Assembly (NCBI RefSeq): GCF_004010195.1
Contig: NC_057744.1
Span: 13,295,518-13,359,517 of the forward strand
Origin: Chiloscyllium plagiosum
Lineage: Eukaryota
Direction of reading: 5' to 3'
Length of the DNA: 64,000 nucleotides
Made by a program: the position numbers and the translations under genes. The first letter of the stretch is position 1. Each line of letters begins with the position of its first letter. Of this stretch, positions 1 to 51,400 are shown in pieces. The notes under the pieces are model-generated. The model ran no database searches. It worked only from the letters and a program-made list of their open reading frames with translations, and had not been told where the DNA came from.

Positions 1-225
1 TATCCACAAACCTACTAATTTGACCAGCTACATTTTCCTCCAAAACATTTATATAAATCATGAACAGCAGAGGTCCCAGCACTGATCCCTGTGGAACACC
101 ATTAGCCACAGCCCTCCATTCCACCACTACCTTCTGTCTCCTATGACTAAGCCAATTCTGTGTCCATCTTGCCAGCTCACCCCTGATATCATGTGACTTC
201 ACCTTTTATACCAGTCTGCCATGAG
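1..225 (-). mobile_element. CR1-type LINE reverse-transcriptase fragment
   Basis: Reverse complement of ~70-103 reads ggtgttccacagggatcagtgctgggacctct = GVPQGSVLGPL (LINE RT motif). Confidence 0.85.
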
Positions 226-3339: not shown

Positions 3340-4270
3340 GTCTTGTAAGATTACTGAGGAATCACAAGGTAATCTGTAGAGATATGTTTAGATGTATTAC
3401 ATTAGCTAGAAATGACATAGACATAGGAGAGTCAGGACCAATAAAACAGCATTCTTGTCAGTTAAACCCAAAAAAAACTGAGGAGGAAACATAGGCTCAG
3501 CACAGGCTGGAAAATCACTTACTTGAAACCAGTATAAGCAGCTGGAGTTCACTGGCAATGATAACTCCTAATCCAGATGGATCAACTAAATTCTGTACAG
3601 ATTATAGAAAGGTGAATGGGGTCACAAAGACAGATTCATACCTAATTTCATTATTATAAGACTGAATTGATTGTGTTGACAGTGCCTTTCTAAAACTGAT
3701 CTACCTGAGGTGTACTGGCAAGCACCACTGACATCAAAGGCTAAAGAAATATTAACTTTTGCTTCAGCAAATGGTTACAACAATGTCAAGATGATGCCCC
3801 CGCTATGTTATAGATACTTAAGAATGAAGATTTATAACTGTATAGTCTATTTAAATAATTATGTGGTATATTGTAACACATGGAATCGCATGGGAGATAA
3901 ATAGAAAACTTGCTTAAACATTTAGAGTTGGCTGACTTAATAATAAATTTAGCCAATAGTAAATGCAAAAAAACAACAGTAACTTACAAACACATTTTAT
4001 AGGTCAAGTGTTACCAAGAACAATGAAATTGATGGCTCTAACAGTATTTCCCATTCCTAAAACTAAATGAGAAATCATGAAATATTTAGGAATGTGTGGA
4101 TTTCATTGTAAATTTGTATGCAACTTCAGCACGAGAGTGAGGCTTTTTTTTTTAAAGAAACAAGCAAAGTCAGTAGAATGCAAGGCTGCCTTTGAGACCT
4201 TGAAACAAATCAAATTATGTGAGCCAGTGTTCAAAAACTGTCATTGGGTCATCATCCTGGAATACACTTC
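3340..4270 (+). mobile_element. Decayed Gypsy LTR-retrotransposon pol (RT and connection)
   Basis: Translates to DIDIGESGPIKQH, SSWSS...PNPDGSTKFCTDYRKVNGVTKTDSY, YWQAPLT..AKEILTF and YLGMCGFHCKFVCNFS; stops and frameshifts. Confidence 0.9.
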
Positions 4271-5092: not shown

Positions 5093-5290
5093 AAGAGCTG
5101 CTCTGTCATTAGAGAGAGATGACTGGTGGCGGTTTAACCTGAGGATCACCACACCTCAGGTGAGGGGAGACTTTGAAAAAAAGGGACCTGCATGGTAACA
5201 TGTGTAGGAATGTGTAGCCAGTGTAGGAATTCAAATGATACTGTTGGCATTACTCTGTATCACAAACCAGCCATCCAGCCTTCAGGTGCT
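5093..5290 (-). mobile_element. tRNA-derived SINE, family B
   Basis: Reverse complement similar to the + strand copy at 47818-48030 and to 6730-6895. Confidence 0.65.
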
Positions 5291-7762: not shown

Positions 7763-9223
7763 TCAATTATGGCTGAGGTAGCTTACTCAGCAGATACTGC
7801 TGAAGAATCAGGAAACTCCTTGCTCTGTACAGTACTGTGTAGTATTCCCCATTGACTCATTAGAGAACTCACTATACATATTGATACCATTGGAAATTAC
7901 ATCACCACAAACTGACCATGAATTGTTGGTTCTATCCCTGAGCTTTGGCATAATTTGTACCCAAATCATTTCCCTTAATGTCTCCATTTTAAAATGACTA
8001 CTTATTAAGCAGGAGCAAGAAAACATTTGACTAACACATTGACAATCACCTCAATTAAATGAGCTGATGGAATGAATGCTTATTAAATTCAGCATCAAAA
8101 TGACAGTCCATAAAAGCAGAACTGTGTGCTTTGGAAAGATGGTGAACTTCAGACACTTCTCCTGAACAATTCTGCCCCCCACCAAGCAGTTGAAACAGTT
8201 CTTAGTAAATTATGCATGATAACACTAAATTGAATGTTTCTCGACAAAGCAAAAATTCCCACGCATTGGGTTTTTGCCCCAGCGGGGTGATAAATACATA
8301 AATGTTTCCATGCCCAAACGCTTTCATTTCCCTTGCTAAATGCTTTTTGTCAAAGGCTGTCAATGAATTCCCTGCTGCACACCAGGCCAATTTAAATTGG
8401 TACCATCTGTGGACCACTGTCTTGTCAGAGATCAAGCTTAGGCTGTCTCTTTCAACTTTATCAAAGTATGATAGCAGTAAATAAACTAAAATTGTTTCAG
8501 AAAAAGATGTGTGGACAGGGACATTTAGTGCCATTTAATTAATGCAATGTAGGAATCAAGTTTACAAAACACTTCTTACCAATATTTTCTCCAACCCACC
8601 TGAAGGCACTGACTCCACATTGGATTTGAAACATAGCTACAGGCAACCACTGCATATAATTTACCATTTAGATACAGGCCATTGAGCCCATTTGGTCACT
8701 GCTGATGCTAATTGGCCACACAGGCATCACCACTGAATTTATCTCATTTTGAGGTATCAATTTAGCCATTTATTGTTTTATCCCTCAAGAACATACCTAC
8801 TTTCTCCTTAAATGAGGTTCAGACTCATGTGTGAACCAATTCCACATTTGGATCATTCTCTCAGTTTACCTAGCAGCCATTTTACATTTACAAATTTAAA
8901 CAGTTGGTAGTTGTGAATGTTAACCGTGGTCCAATGCAATAATTAAGATGAGTGCAATGTGCACTTTACAACAGGCGTTACATGTTAGCTTTCAGAAAGA
9001 GCATCCTCAATGGAATTTTCACTTCTTATGAAAAAGTAGGTCAATTATGGCTGAGGTAGCTAACTCAGCAGACACAGTTGGAAAATCTGGAACCTCCTTG
9101 CTCTGTACGGTACAGCATTCATTCCCCATTGACTCATTAAAGAATCACTGTGCATATTGCTACTATTGGGAATTATATCACCACTAACTGTCCAAAATTG
9201 TCGGTTCTACCCCTGAGCTTTGG
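7763..9223 (+). repeat. Dispersed direct duplication of ~185 bp (7763-7948 and 9041-9223)
   Basis: Both copies run tcaattatggctgaggtagc...attccccattgactcatta...ctgagctttgg; roughly 80% identical by eye. Confidence 0.9.
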
Positions 9224-17526: not shown

Positions 17527-17652
17527 TTCCTGATGAAGGGCTTTTGCCCAAAACATTGATTCTCCTGCTCCTCGGTTGCTGTCTGATCTGCTGTGCTCTT
17601 CCAGCACCACACTCTCGACTCTAATCTCCAGCATCTGCCGTCCTCACTTTCG
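17527..17652 (+). mobile_element. PLE terminal-repeat fragment starting at a CpG-decayed hammerhead
   Basis: ttc-ctgatga-a-gggc-tttt-gccc-aaaacattg followed by the conserved tgctgcctgacctgctgtgc-like repeat. Confidence 0.85.
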
Positions 17653-32852: not shown

Positions 32853-33062
32853 GAAAGTGAGGACTGCAGATGCTGGAGATCAGAGCTGAAAAATGTGTTG
32901 CTGGAAAAGCGCAGCAGGTCAGGCGGCATCCAAGGAGCAGGAGAATCGACGTTTCGGGCATAAGCCCTCCTTCGGGAAGAAGGGCTTATGCCCGAAACGT
33001 CGATTCTCCTGCTCCTTGGATGCTGCCTGACCTGCTGTGCTTTTCCAGCAACACATTTTTCA
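32853..33062. mobile_element. Palindromic non-autonomous PLE derivative with 15-bp TSD
   Basis: TSD gttcagctgttagga at 32838-32852 and 33063-33077; 88-bp arms (32886-32973 / 32976-33063) with 3 mismatches. Confidence 0.93.
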
Positions 33063-37769: not shown

Positions 37770-38050
37770 GTTGGGTATACCCGTTCTTTTTGAATACGCT
37801 GTATAGGTGATTTTCCTTAGCTCTTCATTGTTCCTCTGTGTTGCAGTGTATGGTGGCTTGTTGAAATAATGTTCTAATGCAGCTTCATTTGTGGGTGTTG
37901 AGATGCTTGCTTCTGTAGTTTAGTATTGGGTCCATATGTGTTGTTTTTCTGTAGATGCTGGTTTGAAGTTCTCAAAGAACATCACTGACCCAAGGAAATC
38001 TAAACACATAAACAGAAAGTGGGTCATAACACCAGCACTCCACCAAAGGC

Positions 38051-38090
38051 TCACTGATGATGTTATCTAACATGGTGACGAAACATCTGG
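38051..38090 (+). ncRNA. Near-intact minimal hammerhead ribozyme motif (PLE family 2)
   Basis: UCA-CUGAUGA-U-GUUAUC(UAACAU)GGUGAC-GAAAC-AUC-UGG; stems I and II pair with G-U wobbles; G16.2>A is consistent with CpG decay. Confidence 0.7.
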
Positions 38091-38179
38091 ATATGAACTT
38101 TCCAGCTCAGCAAGCAAACATACAACCAGAACCTCAACCTGAGCTATAAGATCTTCTCAAAACTCAATAAATTATAAAC

Positions 38180-39050
38180 AGTTGAGATCCCAGTATTGTT
38201 TCTTGTGGCACTCCACAAGTTAGTTTTCCAAACTGATAACAGCTAATTTATCACAAATTTTGATCTGATCTTTGTTAATTAGCAAGTGCTCTGCTGATAT
38301 GTCAGTGCCAACACCATAAACTCTCTTCAAGTGCAGTCACTTTTTATTTGGCAGCTTATCAAATGCCTTTTGCAAATCCAAACCAAATATAGCACATCTG
38401 CAGCATCCCCTTTATCCACTGTTTATTATATCCTCAAAGAATCCAATACATTAGTCAAAAATGATTACCCTTTCACAGAACTTGTTCACTTTACCTAACT
38501 GTACTGAAGTCTTTAAAGATGAAAAGACAAGTTGAGAGCAAAATAAAATTCTGGAGTGCAAAGGAAGTTATTTTGAACCTTAAGAAAACACCAGGTAAGC
38601 CAGTAACTACAGAATCATCGCCTGGGCAGCATACTTAATCAAAGTATGGTACCAGCAATCAGGACTTCAGGTATGTAAACAGACTAGAGAAGTTGAAATT
38701 TTTTCTCCTCAGAAGATGTAAGGTTAAGAAGACATTTGACTGAGATGTAAATAGAATAATGGATAGAATAAATAAGTGGCAACTAGTGACAACAAGCAGA
38801 ACTGGTAACTTGACTGGATCGGATTTAAATGAATTGTCATAGGTGACATGAACAGACATGTTTTTAAACATCAAGTTGTTATTTAGAATGTGCTACCTAG
38901 GAGGGGATAAGCAACTTCAATGATAACCTTCAAAAGACAATTGGATATATATGTGAAAGGGAAAACAAAACAGGAACAAAGGGAAAAAGCTGATAAATAA
39001 TTGGGCATCTTTACCAAAGAGACAGCATGGTACAATGGGCCAACTTATTA
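38180..39050. mobile_element. Decayed CR1 fragments (38180-38480 minus, 38500-39050 plus)
   Basis: GVPQ-like and DL.KAFDKL-like motifs on the minus strand; LEKL.FFLLRR and 3' remnants on the plus strand. Confidence 0.6.
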
Positions 39051-39388
39051 GATTTTGAGTAGATTGTACAGAAGTTCATTGCTCTTTTTTAAGCAATGCC
39101 ATGGGCTCTGCAGATGCTGGAGTTCAGAGTCGCGAGTGTGGCACTGGAAAAGCACATCAGACCAGGCAGCATCCGAGAAGCAGGTGAATCGATGTTATGG
39201 ATAAAATGACCCTCAGCAGGAATGCAACCTTCGCTTTTATTACTGAAGCAGGTAGACTAATCCTCCAGAGTTCCAAATTGAGAGTATCAGGAATTAGATC
39301 AAACTTTCTCACGACTGTTAATGAAACTATTTTCAATAATAAAATGAATTTTTTTTTCAGTTGCTATTTTTGTGGTTTTAATCTGTTA

Positions 39389-40397
39389 CCGTACATACTC
39401 AAGTAATAGTCGAATGTTTTGACTACTATTTAAGGTTAAATGTATGGGGTTGAACATTACATGGATACTGTTTTTGAGGGGCTGAAATTCATGCCCGTCA
39501 AAATTCATACCCCCCCCTGCTGACCAATAAATGATTGAAGAAAAAAAATGAATTATGGTAACTCTGAAAACCGGGACATTGGTTAGGCCACTGTTGGAAT
39601 ATTGTGTGCAATTCTGGTCTCCTTCCTATCGGAAAGATGTTATGAAACTTGAAAGGGTTCAGAAAAGATTTATAAGGATGTTGCCAGGGTTGGAAGATTT
39701 GAGATATAGGGAGATGCTGAAGAGGCTGGGGTGATTCTGAAGGTGATTCTGAATATTCTTTAGAAACAAATACAGTTCAGGTGTTCTTTAACAGTTGTTT
39801 TCCCTGGAGCATCGGAGGCTGAGAGGTGACCTTATCAAGGTTTACAAAATTATGAGGGACATGGATAGGATAAATAGACAAAGACATTTCCCTGGGGTGG
39901 AGGAGTCCAGAACTAGAGGGCATAGGTTTAGGGTGAGAGTGGAAAGATATAAAAGCGACCTAAGGGACAACGTTTTCACGCAAAAGGTGGTACATGCATG
40001 GAAGACTACAATTGCAACATTTAAGAGGCATTTGGATGGGTATGTGAATGGGAAGGGCTTGGAGGGATATGGGCTGGGTGCTGGCAGGTGGGACTAGATT
40101 GGGTTGGGATATCTGGTCGGCATGGATGGGTTGGACCGAAGGGTCTGTTTCCATGCTGTACATCTCTATGACTCTATGACTGTAAAACAGCTAGCAGACT
40201 GGAAGACCAGGAGCGGAGTGGAACAACCGGCAGATTGGAACGCTGGAGTGGGCTGCGACAGCGGCACACTGACTCATAAACATTGATCTGCTATTTGTGA
40301 AGAACAAGGGTCAACCTTTACACGTGATGTATGGAAAATTCCAGATTATTTAACCAAAAAAAAGGTCGACCTTTACATGAGATCGACTATATACCGA
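39389..40397. mobile_element. Remnant Tc1/mariner (Tc2/pogo-like) non-autonomous DNA transposon split by a CR1
   Basis: TA + ccgtacatactcaagtaatagtcga at the left end; partial inverted end tcgactatatacc at ~40383-40395. Confidence 0.45.
39572..40181 (+). mobile_element. CR1-type (HER1-like) LINE 3' part
   Basis: LVRPLLEYCVQFWSP, ORF 39795-40097 FSLEHRRLRGDLIKVYK and (ctctatga)n tail. Confidence 0.93.
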
Positions 40398-40930
40398 ATT
40401 TAGAGTCACAAAGTCCTAGAAATGTACAACACGTGGACAGACCCTTCATTCGTACTCATCCATGCCAACCAGATATCCTGAATTAATTTAGTCTCATTTG
40501 CCAACACTTGACCCATAACCCTCCAAACCCTTCCTATTCATTTACCCAGATGCCTTTTAAATGTTGTAATTTTACCAGCCTCCACCACTTTCTCTGGCAG
40601 CTCACTCTGGACATGTACCACCCTCTGTGTGAAAACGTTGCCCCTTAGATCTCTTTTAAATATTTCCCCCCTCACTCTAAACCTATGCCCTCTAGTTCTG
40701 GATTCCCCCACCCCAGGGAGAAGACCTTGCGTAATTATCCGATCCATGCCCCTCACAATTTTATAAACCTCTATAAGGTCGCCCCTCAGCCTCTGATGCT
40801 CCAGGGAAAACAGCACCAGCTTATTCAGCATCTCCGAGGAGAAAGTGAGGTCTGCAGATGCTGGAGATCAAAGTTGAAACTTTATTGCTGGAACAGCACA
40901 GCAGGTCAGGCAGCATCCAGGGAACAGGAG

Positions 40931-40966
40931 ATTCGACGTTTCGGGCACAGGCCCTTCTTCAGGAAT
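40931..40966 (-). ncRNA. Intact minimal type-I hammerhead ribozyme motif (PLE family 1)
   Basis: Minus strand AUUC-CUGAAGA-A-GGGC(CUGU)GCCC-GAAAC-GUC-GAAU. Confidence 0.85.
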
Positions 40967-41438
40967 GAGCAGAGAGTGTTCAGCAGGAGAAGATAAAAGG
41001 TAGGGAGGAGGGACTTGGAGGAGGGGAGTTGGAAATGTGATAGGTGGAAAGAGGTCAAGGTGAGGGTGATAGGTCGGAGTAGGACGGAGGCGGAGAGGTC
41101 AAGAAGAAGACAGCAGGTCAGGAAGGCGGTGCCGGGCGGGAAGGATCCGGCTGAGACAAGGTGGGGGGAGGGGGGATGAAAAAACTCATCACCCCAGGGG
41201 ACCTCCCATCCACCGCCTCCAACCTCATAGTCCCACAACCCCGAACCGCCCGTTTCTACCTCCTGCCCAAAATCCACAAACCTGACTGCCCCGGACGACC
41301 CATCGTCTCAGCCTGCTCCTGCCCAACCGAACTCATCTCGGCATACCTCGACACGGTCCTGTCCCCATTAGTCCAAGAACCCCCCACCTACGTCCGTGAC
41401 ACCACCCACGCCCTCCACCTCCTCCAGGATTCCCGCTT

Positions 41439-41879
41439 NNNNNNNNNNNNNNNNNNNNNNNNNNNNNNNNNNNNNNNNNNNNNNNNNNNNNNNNNNNNNN
41501 NNNNNNNNNNNNNNNNNNNNNNNNNNNNNNNNNNNNNNNNNNNNNNNNNNNNNNNNNNNNNNNNNNNNNNNNNNNNNNNNNNNNNNNNNNNNNNNNNNNN
41601 NNNNNNNNNNNNNNNNNNNNNNNNNNNNNNNNNNNNNNNNNNNNNNNNNNNNNNNNNNNNNNNNNNNNNNNNNNNNNNNNNNNNNNNNNNNNNNNNNNNN
41701 NNNNNNNNNNNNNNNNNNNNNNNNNNNNNNNNNNNNNNNNNNNNNNNNNNNNNNNNNNNNNNNNNNNNNNNNNNNNNNNNNNNNNNNNNNNNNNNNNNNN
41801 NNNNNNNNNNNNNNNNNNNNNNNNNNNNNNNNNNNNNNNNNNNNNNNNNNNNNNNNNNNNNNNNNNNNNNNNNNNNNNN
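41439..41879. other. Assembly gap (441 N)
   Basis: Run of N. Confidence 1.
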
Positions 41880-42046
41880 AGGTGCCGGTGTTGGACTAAG
41901 GTGGGCAAAGTTAAAAATCTGACAACACTAGGTTATAGTCCAACAGGTTTATTTGGAAGCACTAGCTTCCGGAGCACTGCTCCTTCATCAGGTAGCTGAT
42001 AAATCTGTTGAACTATAACCTAGTGTTGTCTGATTTTTAACTTTGT
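41880..42046. mobile_element. Palindromic PLE derivative (family 3) with hammerhead-like core at 41960-41994 (-)
   Basis: Inverted arms caaagttaaaaatc.gacaacactaggttatagt.caacag; minus strand UAC-CUGAUGA-A-GGAGC(AGU)GCUCC-GGAAG-CUA-GUG. Confidence 0.8.
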
Positions 42047-42984
42047 TTCTGTGTTGCCAGCCCTGAGTAACATTGTTAAATCTTGCCAAATGCTGTTGAG
42101 TCTCAATTCAAAAAGATAATCACAGAGTGAGTTGCGATGAAAATCATGGGTCCCAGGCGCATAATGGAAGCAGCAGCTCCAGGCAAAGCAGACAGCAGAG
42201 ACCGACACACTGAACACATGGCAAGTATCTCTGCTTAGTTATCATTCCCAGTGGATCCCTCACCAAATAAGAAAATGTCTCAGCATCCCATCCAGCTTTA
42301 TCCTTTATGAGGTAAAGGAACGAGAGGCGGAGAAAACTTTGAGCAAGAGCCTGCTTGCTTGCTTTCTGTAACTGAACCTAGAACATAGCATTAGAGCTGG
42401 CAGCATCTGTGAAGAGAAACGTTTTGGGTCGACTGAGCCTCAGAACCCACAGATGCTACCATACCAGCAGAGTCTCTCCAACAATTTCTGTTTTTGTTTC
42501 TGATTTACAGCAGCCGCAGTTCTTTTGGCTTTTAACATATCATTAGGACTTGACAGAAATGTGGATGTAACAGCCCACAAGCTGCATCTTCTAACAGCCA
42601 CACTGTAGGTATTTAGAACAATGAAAGGATCTTACACACATTACTGAAGCTAAGCTCCCAGCATCATAAGCCTTCACAAGCCATCAGCATTGAATAGTTC
42701 TTTGCGGAGATTAAACAAATGACTTATTTGTCTGACAGATGTTGTGCTTTGAAAAATATTTGCATGCTTCAGCAAAGCACTCAGATTTTATTGGCCAACC
42801 AGTCACCCAGCTTTTCTGCTCCTTCCCTCTTTGTCAGCTGGAACTCAGTCAGTCACATTTGCTTGTAAAGTCAGGCTCATTTGGGAATTAAAACACAACA
42901 GCGAATGCTGGAGATTGGAAACAAAACAGAAATTTCTGCAGAGACTCTGCTGATATGGTAGCATCTGTGAGAAGAAAGGACAGG

Positions 42985-44665
42985 AGTGGGAATTTGTGCT
43001 TGGAGTCCGAGGAGATAGGAGAGGTGCTAAATGAATATTTTTCATTAGTATTTACACTGGAAAGAGACAATGTTGTTGAGGAGAACACTGAGGTACAGGC
43101 TATTAGATGAGATGGGACTGAGGTTCGTAAGGAGGAGGTGTTAGCAATTCTGGAAAGTGTGAAAATAGATAAGTCCCCTGGGCCGGATGTGATTTATCCT
43201 CAGATTCTCTGGGAAGCCAGGAAGGAGATTGCAGAACATTTGGCTTTGATCTTTATGTCGTCATTGTCGACAGAAATTGTGCCAGAAGACTGGAAGATAG
43301 CAAATGTTGTCCCCTTGTTCAAGAAGGGGAGTAGAGACAACTTTGGTAATTATAGAGCAGTGAGCCTTACTTCAGTTGTGGGTAAAGTGCTGGAAAGAAT
43401 TATAAGATATAGGATTTATTATTAACTAGAAAGGAACAATTTGATTAGGGATAGTCAACACAGTTTTGTGAAGGGCAGGTCGTGCCTCGCAAAGCTTATT
43501 GAGATGGTTGAGAAGATGAATGAGGGTATAGTGGTTGATGTGGTGTACATGGATTTCAGTAAAGCGTTTGATAAGGTTCCCCATGGTAAGCTGTTGCAGT
43601 AAATATGGAGGTATGGGATTGAGGGTGATTTAGTGGTATGAATCAGAAATTGGTTAGCTGAAAGAAGACAGAGAGTGGTGGTGGCAAATGTTCATCCTGG
43701 TGTTCAGTTATTAGTGGTATACCATAAGGATCTGTTTAGGGGCCACTGCTGTTTGTCATTTTTATACATGACCTGGATGATGGCGTAGAAGGATGGGTTA
43801 GTAAATTTACAAATGACTCTAAGGTCGGTCGAGCTGTGGACAGTGCTGAAGGATATTGCTGCTTACAGAGGGACATAGATAAGCTGCAGAGTTGGGCTGA
43901 AAGGTGGCAAATGGAGTTTAATGCAGAAAAGTGTGAGGTGATTCATTTTGGAAGAAGTAACAGTAATACAGAGTACTGGGGTAATGGTAAGGTTCTTGCA
44001 GTGTGGATGAGCAGAAAGATCTCCGTGTCCATGTACATAGATCCCTGAAAGTTGCCACCCAGGTTAATAGGATTGTTAAGAAGGCATATGAACCATGGGG
44101 TTATGTTGCAGCTGTAGGAAACTATGGTGTGGCCGCACTTGGAGTATTGCGTACAGTTCTGGTTACCACATTATAGGAAGGATGTGTAAGTTTTGGAAAA
44201 GATGCAGAGGAGATTTATGAGGATATTGTCTGGTATGGAAGGAAGGTCTTCTGAGGAAAGACTGAGTGACCTGAGGCTGTTTTCGTTAGAAGGAAGAGGT
44301 TGAGAGGTGACTTAATAGAGATGTGAAAGATGATCAGAGGATTAGATAGTGTTAGCAGAGAGAGACGTTTTCCTCGGATAGTGATGGCTAGCATGAGAGG
44401 ACATAGCTTTAAATTGAGCGGTGATAGATATAGGACAGATGTCAGAGGGGTAGTTTCTTTACTCAGAGAGTAGTAATGGCGTGAAACTCCCTGCCTGCAA
44501 CTGTAGTAGACTCACCGACTTTAATGTCTTTTTAAATGGCCATTGGATAAACATATGGATGATAATGCAACAATGCAGGTTAGTTCAGCTTCAGGCTGGT
44601 TTCACAGGTCAGCACAACATTGAGGGTCAGAGAGCCTGGACTGTGCTGTAATGTTCTGTGTTCTT
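42985..44665 (+). mobile_element. CR1-type LINE, 5'-truncated ORF2 (RT) to 3' tail, frameshifted
   Basis: KSPGPDVIYPQIL...PEDWKIANVVPLFKKG..NYRAVSLTSVVGKVLE, DFSKAFDKVPH and LQRDIDKLQSWAERWQMEFNAEKC. Confidence 0.95.
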
Positions 44666-44799
44666 TGAAAGCAAGATAATATTTCGAGTCTGGCGATTCT
44701 TCATCAGAACTGTTAACAGCTCAGGAAAGGTGGTAATATATTGAAGTGACGTTTGTGGGAAGGGGTTGGTCTTGCACAAGGTGACTTACTTGCCGATTT

Positions 44800-45116
44800 A
44801 CTTCCTCCAACCTCAGTATCCAAGGCCTCAGGCACACCTTCCAGGTGAAGCAGCAGCTTACCTGCACTTCTCTCAACTCATTTATTTCATTCACTGCTCA
44901 GAATGTGGTCTCCTGTATATCGGGGGAGATGAAACACAGATTTGATGACCGCTTTGCTGAACACCTACACTCTGTCTGTAAAACATGACCCAGAGTTTCC
45001 CACTGCCTCCACTTCAACACACCACTGTGTTCCTACACCAACATTTCTGTCCCAGATCTGTTGCAGTGTTCCTTAACGCAAGTTCAAAGAACAACACTTC
45101 ATTTTCCACTTGGGGA
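44800..45116 (+). mobile_element. Old decayed PLE GIY-YIG fragment
   Basis: IHCSECGLLYIG...RFDDRFAEHL; similar to 24630-24910. Confidence 0.75.
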
Positions 45117-45135
45117 TGCTGAACACTCTCTGCTC

Positions 45136-45171
45136 ATTCCTGAAGAAGGGCCTGTGCCCGAAACGTCGAAT
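45136..45171 (+). ncRNA. Intact minimal type-I hammerhead ribozyme motif (PLE family 1)
   Basis: AUUC-CUGAAGA-A-GGGC(CUGU)GCCC-GAAAC-GUC-GAAU; predicted cleavage after C45167. Confidence 0.85.
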
Positions 45172-46269
45172 CTCCTGTTCCCTGGATGCTGCCTGACCTG
45201 CTGTGCTGTTCCAGCAATAAAGTTTCAACTATTCAGCATCTCCCTATAGTTCAAATCCTCCAACCCTGGCAACATCCTTGTAAATCTTTTCTGAACCCTT
45301 TCAAGTTTTGCAACATCTTTTTGATAGGAGGGAGACCAGAATTGCTTGCAATATTCCAAAAATGTCCTTTACAGCCACATGACCTCTCCAACCCCTGTAC
45401 TCAATGCTCTGACCAATAAAAGAAAGCATACCAAACGCCTTCTTCACTATCTTATCTACCTGCGACTCCACTTTCAAGGAGCTATGAACCTGAACTCCAA
45501 GGTCTCTTTGTTCAGCAGCACTCCCCAGGACCTTACCATTCAGTATGTAAGTCCTGCTCTGATTTGCCTTTCTGAAATGCAGCACCAGACATTTACCTAA
45601 ATCAATCTCTATCTGCCACTTCTCAGCCTACTGGTCTATCTGATCATGATCCCATTGTACTCTGAGGTAACCTTATTTGCTGTCCATGACACTTCCAATT
45701 TTGGTGTCATCTGCAAACTTACTAACTATACCTCCTACTTTCACATCCAAATCAATTATATAAATGACAAAAAGCAGTGGACCCAGCACCTATCCTTGTG
45801 GCACACCACTACTGAGCTTCAACAATATTATGACTTAGGTTTTATGAAGGTGATTCTGAATATTCTTTAGAAACAAATACAGTTCAGGTATTCTTTAACA
45901 GCACGTCCAAAAATTGAAATGGCGAAACAACCAAAGTTTTATTTTTCAAGCACACCTCTAAATCATGTGGGAAACTGGGGTTCCGGCAGAACCCCAGTGT
46001 TACCTTATAGGTACTGAAGCAGTTCCAGAAAACTCACAAGGATCAGGCTGGGGTTCTCTTGTTTTCACTTCTGACACTTCAGCCAGTTCTGACCTGAAGT
46101 CCATCAAAAATCATCTCTTTAGCAATACTGTTGACAGTCACACGTTTGCTTTACCTTGGCTTTTTAGTCCTTTTTTATTGAAAAAGCAGTTTTATTCTTC
46201 CAATAGTCATGTTAGAAAGACCATTTTATACCCCTATAGGTGGTGTAAGAAAAATAATTAGCAAAGGGG

Positions 46270-47790
46270 ATGTTGCAATGACATGACCAATGTATGTCCA
46301 AAATGACTGAGTGAGGAGAATGGGATAGGTGTCACCATCATATATGATTTAAAGAAGCAGAAAGACCAATTGTTGAAATCTCATAAGGAAGGTAAATCTC
46401 AAAAATTAATGATCAATAGAAAAACATTGCATAGATCAAAAGTGATTAAACCAATCATGTTAAGTTGAAATGGATCCATCAGTGAAGAAGTAAAAAGCTT
46501 CCATTTTTGGCCCATGAAGCAAGTCAAGTTTGCCCATGTAGAACCAAAGCTTGAATTAGCATGTGAGTACATGACAGGGAGGTTTCAGAAATTCAAAAAG
46601 AATCACTGTGTCAAGTTTTAAAAGATATTTGGTGATAAGGCATCTACAAACCATGAAACTGCTGAAATCTTTATTGATGAGTTCACCAAGTTCATTTTGG
46701 ACCATAATTTTCCACCTGAACAAATATATAATGCAGATGAAACTAGTCTGTTCTGGTGATACGTCCTTAGGAAAGTGCTAACAACAGTTGAAGAGAAAGC
46801 ACCAACAGGTTAAGGATGCAAAGGTTTGTTGAACAGTTTTTGCATTTGCCAATACAGCTGGCACACAAACATTTAATTTGAATGTAATTGTGGAGAGCAG
46901 AAATCCCAGATGCTTCAAAGGAATTCAGACATTACAAGCTCACTGCTGTGCTAATAAGAGGGTCTGGGTATCAACAAAATGACTGATTGGTTTCATTATC
47001 AATTTGTACCCAAGGCACATTAACATTGTCAAGCAGCTGGACTTCAAGATCATTGTGAAATCTTGTTGCTCCTGGATAACTGTTCAGTACATCCCACTGT
47101 TGAACTGTTGGTGAAGAACAATGGTTTCATTGTTTACTTCCCACTGATGCAAAATCATTAATTCAGACGAAGACATCGTTTGTCCATGAAATGTAAATAT
47201 AGAGACTCTTCCATGATTCGCATGCTTGGTCCTGTAAACAAAGGCCCAATGTTAGACAGTTTTTAAAAGAAATTTACTGTCAAGAACACCCTGTGTGCAT
47301 CAGCTAATGTCTGTGGCTTTGTTGATGAAATAACCTTGACAAATGTATGGCATAATATTTTACCTGCAATAATGTTGAAAGAAGATGATAGGATGGAAGA
47401 AGACTTTGAAGGCTTTCATGTGAGCAAAGAATTCCTTGAGTACACAAAACATATACCTTTGGATCGTGTGAACAACCTTTAGGTGAAAGATATCAAAGAG
47501 GTGCTTACTGTTGATATTGAAGCACCAATCATGCATTTGTGATCAATAAAGAGATTGAACAAATGATGAAATATCAAGGTAAAAGCAGTGACGATGTGGA
47601 TGACTGGATTTTGGACAGGTCGAGAATGTACCTATAGATAATATTGTAATGATGAGTGACAATTTGATATATACACTGGAAAAATGTGATCATATAACCA
47701 AGTAGGAAGCAATGCCTGCATATAAAAATCAAGAACAAACTTCTGAAAGAAGAAAACAAAGATAATGAGGTCGATGACACTGGAAGAACT
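46270..47790 (+). pseudogene. Decayed Tigger/pogo (JRKL/TIGD-like) DNA-transposon transposase
   Basis: GIGVTIIYDLKKQK (HTH), FQKFKKNH, PEQIYNADETSLFW*, ANTAG, NPRCFKG, DWFHYQFVP and LLLLDNCSVHP; multiple stops and frameshifts. Confidence 0.9.
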
Positions 47791-47817
47791 TTCCAAGAAG
47801 GGCTCATAACAAAGTTA

Positions 47818-48030
47818 TTTCAGTTAGCTGGATGACTGGTTTGCATTGTAGAGTGATACCAACAGCATGGGTTCACTCTCTGCACTGGCTGAGGCTATCA
47901 TAAAGATCTCTCCTTCTCAACCTTTCCCTTCAACCTGAGGCATGGTGACCCCTGGTTTAAACCACAACTAGCTGTACTCTCTAATGAGAGAGCAGCCCTG
48001 TAGTCCTCTGGGACATTGGTTACTTTACTA
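47818..48030 (+). mobile_element. SINE family B
   Basis: tRNA-like head (tcagttagctggat...gggttcact); matches 5093-5290 inverted. Confidence 0.7.
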
Positions 48031-48143
48031 TGGAAAAGGAAGTTATTGATCTAGCTGTTTTTATTTCCTCCTTTTCTTGTCTCAACCTGCATATGTTTCT
48101 TGCAATGCACTGCCCTCACTGACTTCCTGGTCAGAGAACCAGT

Positions 48144-48445
48144 GGGCTGCACGGTGGTACAGTGGTTAGCACTGCTGCCTCACAGCGCCAGAGACCCGGG
48201 TTCAATTCCCGCCTCAGGTGACTGACTGTGTGGAGTTTGCACGTTCTCCCCGTGTCTGCGTGGGTTTCCTCCGGGTGCTCCGGTTTCCTCCCACAGTCCA
48301 AAGATGTGCAGGTCAGGTGAATTGGCCATGCTAAAAATTACCCGTAGTGTTAGGTAAGGGGTAAATGTAGGGGTATGGGTGGGTTGCGGGTTGGTGTGGA
48401 CTTGTTGGGCCGAAGGGTCTGTTTCCACACTGTAATGTAATCTAA
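48144..48445 (+). mobile_element. HE1-type V-SINE (young)
   Basis: A/B boxes, CpG-rich V-domain and tail. Confidence 0.93.
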
Positions 48446-51400
48446 AAATTTTACATATATCATCTGACCCATGGTTTAGTTGACTAATCAGGCTTTTCTG
48501 CAGATGTATTAATTATATTGAAAGATGCAAGGAGAGGATTTGGAGAAAACTGCTGCACAATCAAGCAGTTAGTGCTTGATCAAAATGAAAAGGCCAATAT
48601 TTATCATCTATTAATGATAGTGTTTGGTGCACTAATGCTCTTCCTGGCACTCACATAGCCACGTGCAAATCCATGCTGCAATTTCCAAAGAAGTGCCATT
48701 TTTTTTACACTTTGTAGCATTTTGTTGAGGAAATTATTCATTTAGTGGCAGCTCCAGAGGCAATAATTTTTTTTTACAACTACACAGCAAATCCAATTCT
48801 GTCTTCCTGCAGTAGCGGAAATGAAAAAGAGTGGATTTAATTATATCTGCCCTGATAATTTGCCATAACCGTGGCAGTTTTATTAAACTGAAGACTGCAG
48901 GAAGAATATTTATCCTAAACATTCTTTGTGCTCTAGGTACCAACCACTTAGCTCACTGGTCATGTTATACGTTAGGTATTGCTTGCAGCTTTTCTCTTCT
49001 GTACACAGCACTATCAAGCATTTAGAGGATACCTAAGAAATACTAACTTTTGATCTGTTTTCTTATTAGTTAACTTTCTTTGGATAGTTGTAATGTTTTC
49101 TGGTATATTTAACATTGTTTCTTTAATTATATATTTCATTTCTTAAATGATAGTGCTTTGACAGTGCTTAAGCACTTTAGTCAATAATTAAAATCTGTTA
49201 TTGATGAATAACGTTTTTAGTTAAAAGCTTTGGAGGGAAAAATAAAGTGGTACAAGGTGAGTTTATATCTAGATAAATCAGGCTTTGAGAAAGAATGGAA
49301 GTGGAAACAAATGTGAGGGGAAAAGAAAAGAAATCTACTTAAAGAATTTATTAAATTTATATAGTGTCTTCTACAGCTTCACATGCTACAAAGTGCTTTG
49401 TAGCCAGTTTAAGTAAATTCAGTGTTGCTGAAAAGATAGGCAGCTTTCCAAAGCTTTCTGCATGTACTCATCAGGACAAACACAAAAATGCCATTTTGCA
49501 AATGGACACGACAATTTATATTACAGAATAAAAGGTGCTAATTGGTTGCCAAGTAAACTCTAATTGACTGAGATGTTGCCATGGAGAAAGCAATGGAGAA
49601 CTATTGACTATCCAAACTCCTGGATAATTCAGTATTGTGTAAGGGCTTGAACATATTCCTTTTCTTTGTAGAGAACAGATCTTTGAACCTGAATATATGT
49701 TACTTCTATGACTCGACAATGATTCCAGCTTGTATAAATGAGCCATGTGTCTGACCAATTATCTTAAATTCTCATTAGTACAACTACTAGTACACTTTCT
49801 AACCAATCAGGACCTTTTATATCTCTCATATAAATGCAGTTGTTTGAAATTTGGCATTCTTGCACTGATGCTGAGTAATGTAAAACAATATCACTCGTTT
49901 TTTTGCAATATTTAAGTTATATAGTTCAAAGTGGTTGTTTTTAAATTGTAGTCACCACTGTAATGTCCTTTTCACACTGTAACAGAAGGTGATGCTAAAA
50001 TATATACTTATTCTGGGAAAAGGAATCATCTAGCACATTAAAAATTGAATCAGTTCAATGGAAAGATAAATATCCTTGGTTGCTGGGCTGGAAGATTATT
50101 TTTCTGTAATTACGCAACCATCCAAGAAACTGTTTTGATCACACCACTGACTCAAATCGAAGCTTTACATGAGAGTAATGTTTGTATTAAAGTTGACTAA
50201 CAACAAATCATTCATGGAATTCAATCAACACAACAGATATTCTTTTCTATCTCTGTGAGAACTCTTTATGGTCATGCTGCCTTAAATAAAACAGGCTTCC
50301 TTAGAGAAAACTATTTAATGTTAATTTGTCCTTCAAATCCATGGTATCTTTCTTACTAATTCTACACTGATTGAATATATCAGTTTTCTTATGCTTATTT
50401 TTATTTTTGAACTTTTATTCAATGTATTTGAGTTAACCTGAAGATAAACTGGTTAGAGTTTTCAGAATCTTAATGATCATGAGCGGGAAAGTTGAGCATT
50501 ATTGTATTATGCGCTTCCTCCATGGTCAATTTTAAATCTCAGAAACAAGTCAGTTCACTTAGTGATTGAAGATAGCTCAAATGCAGAAGTAAGAGTAACA
50601 TGTCGTCCTTTGATTAGGTACCATTTTTCTGAGCAATGCACTGGTACCATTGTTTATTTTGCACCTGATTTTCTTCACCATCTTGATTTTGCAATTGAAA
50701 TTTTACCCAGCACATCCCTGGAACCCTCTGAAAGGAATGAAAGTCATTAAGTGTGGGAATTTCCCCAGGCAATGCTGATAGATTTCCTGGGTGATAAAAT
50801 ACAGCACTTGCAATGAGGTAGGATCAGAAATTTACCCTAATTTGTCACGAATATGTACCATAAGGTAACGTGAATATGAAGAGGGAATAAAATATTAAAC
50901 ATTGATGGAAATAGTTTCAACTTTAGCATAAGAATTGATAATAGAAACGAGTTGTTTTGTAGTGACAGTTTTTTTTTAAATGTAGTTAGAGGTGTGAGAG
51001 CATATTATTTGTGAGTTTGCTCAGAATTGTGGACAGTAGTCTTTTATTGATTACGAAAGTTTGGAATTAAATCCTAACTAGCATTATGGAAGTAACGGAA
51101 ATAATGTAGGTAATGTTTTTCCTTTCCCCTCCTTAAGGGGTGATCATACCTTGGGACCACTCCAGCAAGTGCCAATCTCCTTCCAGAAGCTTGTCTATGA
51201 CCCTGCTCAGTGCATATTCTTCCCTCTTGGCTTCACGACAATTCTGATATTGTCCACAGCCATATTCTGGATGGACATTGAACACAAAACCATCTACAAT
51301 GAGAAACTCAGTAGTTGACCAGCATTTTCACGGTGGTTTGTTTACTCTCAGGGTGGTGGCAGGATAGTCACATCATACATAAACTACATAACCACATGTT

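Follow-up and report, generated by a model that had tools for sequence, protein, structure and literature searches.

A PLE minimal hammerhead at both ends of a young insertion in Chiloscyllium plagiosum, and copy ends that point to mostly uncleaved insertion templates

The window analysed here, a stretch of 64,000 nucleotides from Chiloscyllium plagiosum, carries a minimal type-I hammerhead (min-HHR) at 45136..45171 (+ strand), for which cleavage is predicted after C45167. The motif consists of a 4-bp stem I (5′ strand 45136-45139, 3′ strand 45168-45171), the core C3-A9 (45140-45146), an extra A (45147) standing unpaired between core and stem II, a 4-bp stem II with a 4-nt loop (45148-45151/45156-45159), G12-A14 (45160-45162), the loop-less stem III palindrome A15.1-U16.1 (45163-45166), and C17 (45167), all on the + strand. 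A twin hammerhead lies at 40931..40966 (− strand); its reverse complement is identical to 45136-45171, and the identity extends to 114 nt (45117-45230 versus 40872-40985). Genome-wide, where exact-copy counts may be raised by assembly gap filling, the 36-mer was found 8,512 times and its reversed control 0 times, which excludes that the motif arose by chance. The hammerhead and its inverted twin, first noticed in a preliminary description made from the letters of this stretch, are thus confirmed. A structure descriptor with pairing, a check proposed there, detected 108 hammerhead sites in 727,603 bases (the window plus fetched loci, by design enriched for the PLE family of the 36-mer) and 0 in the reversed sequence. 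When pairing was not required, a loose core pattern matched the genome 199,322 times versus 614 times for the control, many of the 100 matches listed being decayed. An Rfam scan of 38000-50000 returned nine weak, unrelated matches and no hammerhead at E ≤ 10.

The min-HHR class was defined by type I topology, a short stem I, an unpaired base between 9 and 10.1, a G10.1-C11.1 pair and palindromic positions 15.2-16.2 without a loop 3 (Cervera & De la Peña 2014, PMC4209133). The core CUGANGA ... GAAA ... UH with stems I and II is present in 45136-45171. The extra base is a single nucleotide in 106 of the 108 scanned sites (A 99, T 6, G 1), the G10.1-C11.1 pair corresponds to G45148-C45159 and is kept in the main hammerhead families of the genome, and positions 15.2-16.2 are CG, as in 92 of the 108 sites (GC 7, other 9). 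Extra base and missing loop III had initially been regarded as noteworthy; both, however, define the class. At least three families differ from one another in both strands of stems I, II and III, as read from listings rather than from a shuffle statistic, so that the covariation asked for at the outset exists across the hammerhead families of the genome; within the four closest subfamilies, no covariation of stem I is seen. The canonical Rfam type I hammerhead has a stable stem III, a stem I of 6 bp and a loop-loop contact, which are absent here, and the monomer has no stem III. On every feature that can be judged from sequence, 45136-45171 belongs to the min-HHR class of PLEs, with cleavage as a prediction. 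By analogy with published work on this class, cleavage would depend on a dimer: the schistosome min-HHR showed none as a monomer and a low level as a dimer (PMC4209133), and dimer cleavage of min-HHRs is also credited, in a review, to Lünse et al.

The hammerhead is embedded in the 3′ pseudo-LTR (pLTR) of a young PLE (45117..45230, + strand), the tailless end of which is 95 nt from the first base of the hammerhead. The twin belongs to an inverted pLTR arm (40836..41186, − strand) that bears a tail of ~36 nt (40836-40871) and beyond about 41090 is probably an assembly patch. Two copies of a 14-bp target-site duplication (TSD), the left one (40822..40835, + strand) inside a repeat that we take to be LINE-type and the right one at 45230..45243 (+ strand), frame 40836-45230, with a span of 4,395 nt between them. 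The twins 40931-40966 and 45136-45171 are two ends of one insertion. An inversion between two independent inverted copies was considered and rejected, as the outer flanks share the TSD and continue one presumably LINE-type repeat. Being on opposite strands, the twins cannot be dimer partners in one transcript, contrary to the role initially envisaged for the second copy; a read-through RNA of the insertion would form a 114-bp duplex between the arms. Both hammerheads are ≤131 nt away from the TSD-bearing flanks and are probably derived from this locus. Since an inverted arm together with about one unit, estimated at ~4 kb, would account for the span of 4,395 nt, a near-full-length PLE probably lies beneath the patches; its interior, hidden by a gap and by patches, may contain a second sense hammerhead.

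The same architecture recurs in a set of 98 young arms (98 of the first 100 matches on contig C1, with the 3′ probe placed outside the hammerhead; a handful of long arms, L023/L041, probably represent duplicated patches). Among these, 56 are tailed and 42 tailless, and 48 have an inverted partner. Every complete head-to-head pair (21/21) joins one tailed to one tailless arm, and TSDs are mostly 10-17 bp long. The inverted 5′ pLTR, the tail of 30-40 bp at one end and the TSD expected of an EN+ PLE insertion are all present. At one further locus (L082, about 3364-3639), two inverted arms, each starting at the first base of the hammerhead, enclose unrelated filler, with the TSD outside; the filler is either a real capture or a patch.

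The inverted arm is followed by a PLE reverse-transcriptase (RT) fragment (41187..41438, + strand) that matches the family ORF at 96%. That ORF, in locus L123, has 676 aa and, narrowly below the Pfam cut-offs in each case, matches RVT_1 (E 7.5e-07) and GIY-YIG (E 6e-04). In the ungapped locus L127, the hammerhead is located 1,577 nt downstream of the RT fragment. A pLTR of an RT + GIY-YIG element is therefore where this hammerhead resides, which bears out the earlier assignment to a young PLE. Pfam gave no match for the RT fragment of the window, for two other stretches or for 11 window ORF stretches (one a repeat); hence, no host gene was identified.

Between the RT fragment and the 3′ pLTR lie an assembly gap of 441 N (41439..41879) and a mosaic of old repeats (41880..45116, + strand). 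The latter is very probably a gap-fill patch, the other haplotype of the single-copy locus L105, that replaces the real PLE body. The RT-fragment unit 41187-41438 is probably a pasted contig, because the same junction and the same end recur in three other loci; in the left unit (pLTR plus RT fragment), differences between loci are confined to the ~250 nt next to the flank. Short-read assembly trouble at such PLE loci is on record (PMC3846280, PMC8557442, as far as accessible). The apparently pasted 3.2-kb single-copy haplotype is found beside young PLE ends at 40 or more sites of the assembly (L093-L116, L081, L141), and a second pasted unit, of the 40836-41438 type, is found in four loci.

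Alternatively, 41880-45230 might be genuine non-autonomous cargo, i.e., a 3.2-kb host RNA mobilised in trans, its cDNA transferring in register from the pLTR. All scored matches to 41880-45116 (40/40) are at 100%, in all 20 fetched regions it continues as far as the pLTR (99.6-100%), TSDs reach at least 12 bp in 14/22 cases, and host DNA framed by pLTRs has a precedent in a rotifer (PMC3846280, in the part available). The cargo-pLTR junctions differ in register among loci. We nevertheless consider cargo highly improbable: in two of two other DNA samples, in which the assembled individual is not singled out, the unique parts of the stretch have single-copy depth (10-14 versus a flank of 10.5-11; 16-23 versus 23), so that genomic reads do not present the stretch as multi-copy; 20/21 loci are devoid of body differences, whereas the source-like L105, with native flanks on both sides, differs at five sites, and the two DNA samples segregate for one of them; and 18/24 loci begin at the same base, which in 12 of them borders an N gap. 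The stretch also fills the body length of an autonomous element. The distance from the N-terminal motif to the hammerhead is 3,139, 3,256 and 3,269 nt, and in copies free of cargo it is 3,122-3,386 nt in 9/13 (752, 1,143, 3,521 and 3,881 nt in the other four), with the motif missing in 1/17 loci and two having no downstream hammerhead in the fetched stretch. The second fixed chimera in four loci and, weakly, unique bins devoid of RNA reads in one run likewise argue against cargo. A cargo element using strong-stop-like strand transfer was rejected on the evidence of depth, chimera, N gap and length.

To describe the copies, A45136 was set as position 0, so that cleavage would give a 5′ end at +32. 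The 5′ ends of the 98 arms are concentrated at -3..+3 (47) and +4..+13 (23), with 2 at +14..+27, 6 at +28..+36, 1 beyond and 19 upstream of -3; close to the predicted cut, at +30..+34, only 3/98 are found, none of them at +32. Solo copies with an adjacent TSD, which are too short for gap patches, begin at -3..+3 in 13/18 cases. Exact genome-wide counts amount to 17,395 (+46..91), 17,103 (+32..67), 15,159 (+14..49), 8,512 (0..35) and 4,292 (-19..16); thus, they fall by only 11%, CpG decay included, across the cut (17,103 to 15,159). As 5′ ends pile up at the first base of the hammerhead, and not at the cut, the inserted RNAs of this PLE family are mostly uncleaved, although the evidence is indirect. 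Stalling of RT at the hammerhead fold was rejected as a cause, since RT would be expected to stall on reaching stem I, at its 3′ strand (about +36). An intron ending at the hammerhead was also rejected, because there is no AG at -2/-1 and solo copies share no upstream exon.

The pile-up coincides with an initiator-like sequence (45134..45140, + strand) that overlaps stem I and places A45136, the start of most family copies, at the putative transcription start. The initiator consensus is YYANWYY; it matches four times in the 351-nt pLTR, once at position 0. The four sister subfamilies have an unchanged 5′ strand of stem I, whereas the 3′ strand differs among them, with the loss of a pair, a pattern that a constraint on sequence such as an initiator would produce. 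Promoters of PLEs have been located in the pLTR (PMC2377424, PMC6765202, in the portions accessible). We infer that transcription starts at A45136. Tentatively, then, the first base of the hammerhead would be the transcription start, with stem I doubling as initiator, most of the ~17,000 young arms would be run-off copies of uncleaved RNA, and each twin would use both internal RT starts, one per DNA strand; that all three hold together we regard as slightly doubtful.

A less probable explanation of the pile-up is processing at the DNA level, in which the GIY-YIG enzyme cuts the cDNA at its own ATT, or microhomology (ATT-rich target ends, self-complementary 0..+13) fixes the junction. ATT indeed occurs in the pLTR only at 0 and -70, many solo junctions overlap by 2-4 nt, and the anole enzyme prefers to cleave at ATT (PMC11167929, in the sections available). 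However, junctions between arms, in which no target DNA takes part, have the same peak (21/40 at -3..+3), microhomology alone would not halt about three quarters of the arms within about 30 nt, and the initiator consensus falls exactly on the pile-up site. All of this renders DNA-level processing unlikely, though by no means negligible, and favors a transcription start at the first base of the hammerhead.

RNA reads were taken from a single poly(A) single-cell run, of which about 2% was read; 714 reads, drawn from the whole family, fell on L105. Depth climbs smoothly over the cleavage site (133, 163 and 213 at 8359, 8377 and 8411), 53 reads extend upstream, and among the 714 reads ends do not pile up at the cut, which for 5′-OH ends is a weak test. 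In folding predictions, stem I and stem II both form in the 36-mer on its own (-7.1 kcal/mol); in contexts of 95-171 nt, the pair probability of stem I is ≤0.15 and that of stem II >0.9. Nearest-neighbour energies, which ignore core contacts, disfavour the double hammerhead (-13.1 versus -14.2 kcal/mol for two monomers). The preliminary description had called the ribozyme probably active, a view that the rarity of starts near the cut (3/98), poly(A) reads running through it and a stem I poorly populated in its native context do not sustain.

An efficient ribozyme would mean that dimer transcripts are routinely cleaved to unit-length, possibly circularised, RNAs that serve as insertion templates, as proposed in 2014. 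The core is intact in at least 8,512 copies, and the stems covary across families; moreover, weak dimer cleavage of the schistosome min-HHR (PMC4209133) and protein-assisted cleavage in the anole (PMC11167929, sections available) provide precedents, and religated circles would hide the cut as well. Circles, however, would not stop at position 0, and neither the few 5′ ends at +30..+34, nor the drop of exact counts by merely 11%, nor the single poly(A) run, weak as it is for 5′-OH ends, fits routine cleavage. We therefore judge an efficient ribozyme improbable; most likely, the ribozyme at 45136-45171 is a silent passenger.

With high confidence, the 36-mer can be described as a min-HHR in the 3′ pLTR of a recent, probably near-full-length PLE, the left end of which is an inverted, tailed pLTR containing the twin, and which would work in four steps. 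(1) Transcription would begin at the initiator at the first base of the hammerhead, so that the ribozyme opens the RNA. (2) The monomer, folding without stem III, would be inactive, and the cut after C17, as known for the class, slow and in need of a second sense copy and/or a PLE protein. (3) The RT/GIY-YIG protein would make a staggered cut, in keeping with the TSDs of mostly 10-17 bp, and cDNA synthesis would be initiated internally on the RNA, about 95 and 131 nt downstream; these two sites are observed as 3′ ends of copies and known for the anole element. (4) Copying of uncleaved RNA would run off at its 5′ end, a presumed cause of the observed pile-up, and leave copies of 95 or 131 nt counted from the hammerhead; priming on both strands would yield the head-to-head twins, in which a tailed arm is joined to a tailless one, as seen in 21/21 pairs; and read-through RNA might yield long copies such as the insertion 40836-45230.

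Further hammerheads are scattered over the window. A head-to-head pair of truncated sister-subfamily hammerheads (32948-33001) has the same twin architecture. At 38054-38087 (+ strand), there is a hammerhead of a third family, with an extra T, a longer stem II and CA (a decayed CG) at 15.2-16.2. At about 41955-41995 (− strand), inside the patch, a decayed hammerhead of a PLE family with an AGCU palindrome is accompanied by a 47-nt inverted repeat (41906-41952/41999-42045). In L105, at 5141-5144, 97 and 46 RNA reads, which come from the family, have poly(T) loose ends, implying that the pLTR of the AGCU family is polyadenylated on the minus strand; 26 copies of this family were inspected for a like pile-up of 5′ ends. 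Older, decayed pLTR copies of sister subfamilies are located at 17530-17557 and 39102-39196. Besides, a 60-nt stretch is present twice (39735-39794 and 45842-45901; 97% identical, 6.1 kb apart), and its left copy interrupts the presumed LINE-type repeat at nearly the position at which the PLE is inserted in the neighbouring repeat copy.

By itself, the motif extends a class known since 2014 by one further genome. The profile of copy ends, on the other hand, is a genome-scale argument for uncleaved insertion templates and predicts a capped 5′ end at A45136. If the start-site reading is true, the genome documents in vivo, and on a large scale, that transposition does not use the ribozyme as its processing step; the ribozyme, if it acts, would then make a dimer- or protein-triggered cut that removes a capped 31-nt leader and limits expression of the element. 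Gap-fill patches beside young PLE ends mimic a cargo-carrying element, and nearby findings in this assembly need a check of read depth.

The min-HHRs described previously (PMC4209133) share with 45136-45171 type I topology, the short stem I, the unpaired base, G10.1-C11.1, the loop-less palindrome and the location in a pLTR, where, in metazoan PLEs, most are single, truncated copies. Stem II has 4 bp here compared with 7-8 bp in schistosome families, and the 199,322 loose-pattern matches, many of them decayed, compare with about 4,000 in coelacanth and 9,000 in Xenopus. The text of that paper and two of its supplement files name no cartilaginous fish. The function of PLE hammerheads is still termed unclear in the available part of PMC8557442. 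Non-LTR retrozymes, which according to the portion available of bioRxiv 10.64898/2026.07.22.740005 contain type I hammerheads related to those of PLE pLTRs and include one chondrichthyan species, consist of head-to-tail tandem units, whereas the copy here is a dispersed pLTR in a head-to-head insertion with its two hammerheads inverted and 4.1 kb apart. In Drosophila virilis, PLE transcription begins upstream of the hammerhead, at a distance of 46 nt plus an intron (PMC4209133), whereas the putative start here is at the hammerhead. PLE insertions with an inverted 5′ pLTR and a one-sided tail were described by Arkhipova et al. 2013 (PMC3846280) and Craig et al. 2021 (PMC8557442); judged from the accessible sections, the insertions here resemble them in the inverted arm, the tail at one end only and the TSD, and differ from them in that pairing, when counted, is strict (21/21) and that most insertions have only 95-131 nt per arm. 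Across the literature that could be searched, most subscription papers being out of reach, a 5′ pile-up at the first base of the hammerhead is not described, and the same applies to the available sections on PAc, the Poseidon PLE of Anolis carolinensis (Frangieh et al. 2024, PMC11167929). The PAc ORF begins at stem II, whereas here the ATG at +50 is not supported as an ORF start, since both L076 copies run into a stop 42 codons after it. According to the same sections, PAc and the element described here are alike in the hammerhead in the pLTR, the two internal RT start sites that the tail marks and the AT-rich targets. The likeness extends to the template: PAc RNA ends are absent at the hammerhead cut, and unprocessed RNA is the main insertion substrate in vitro.
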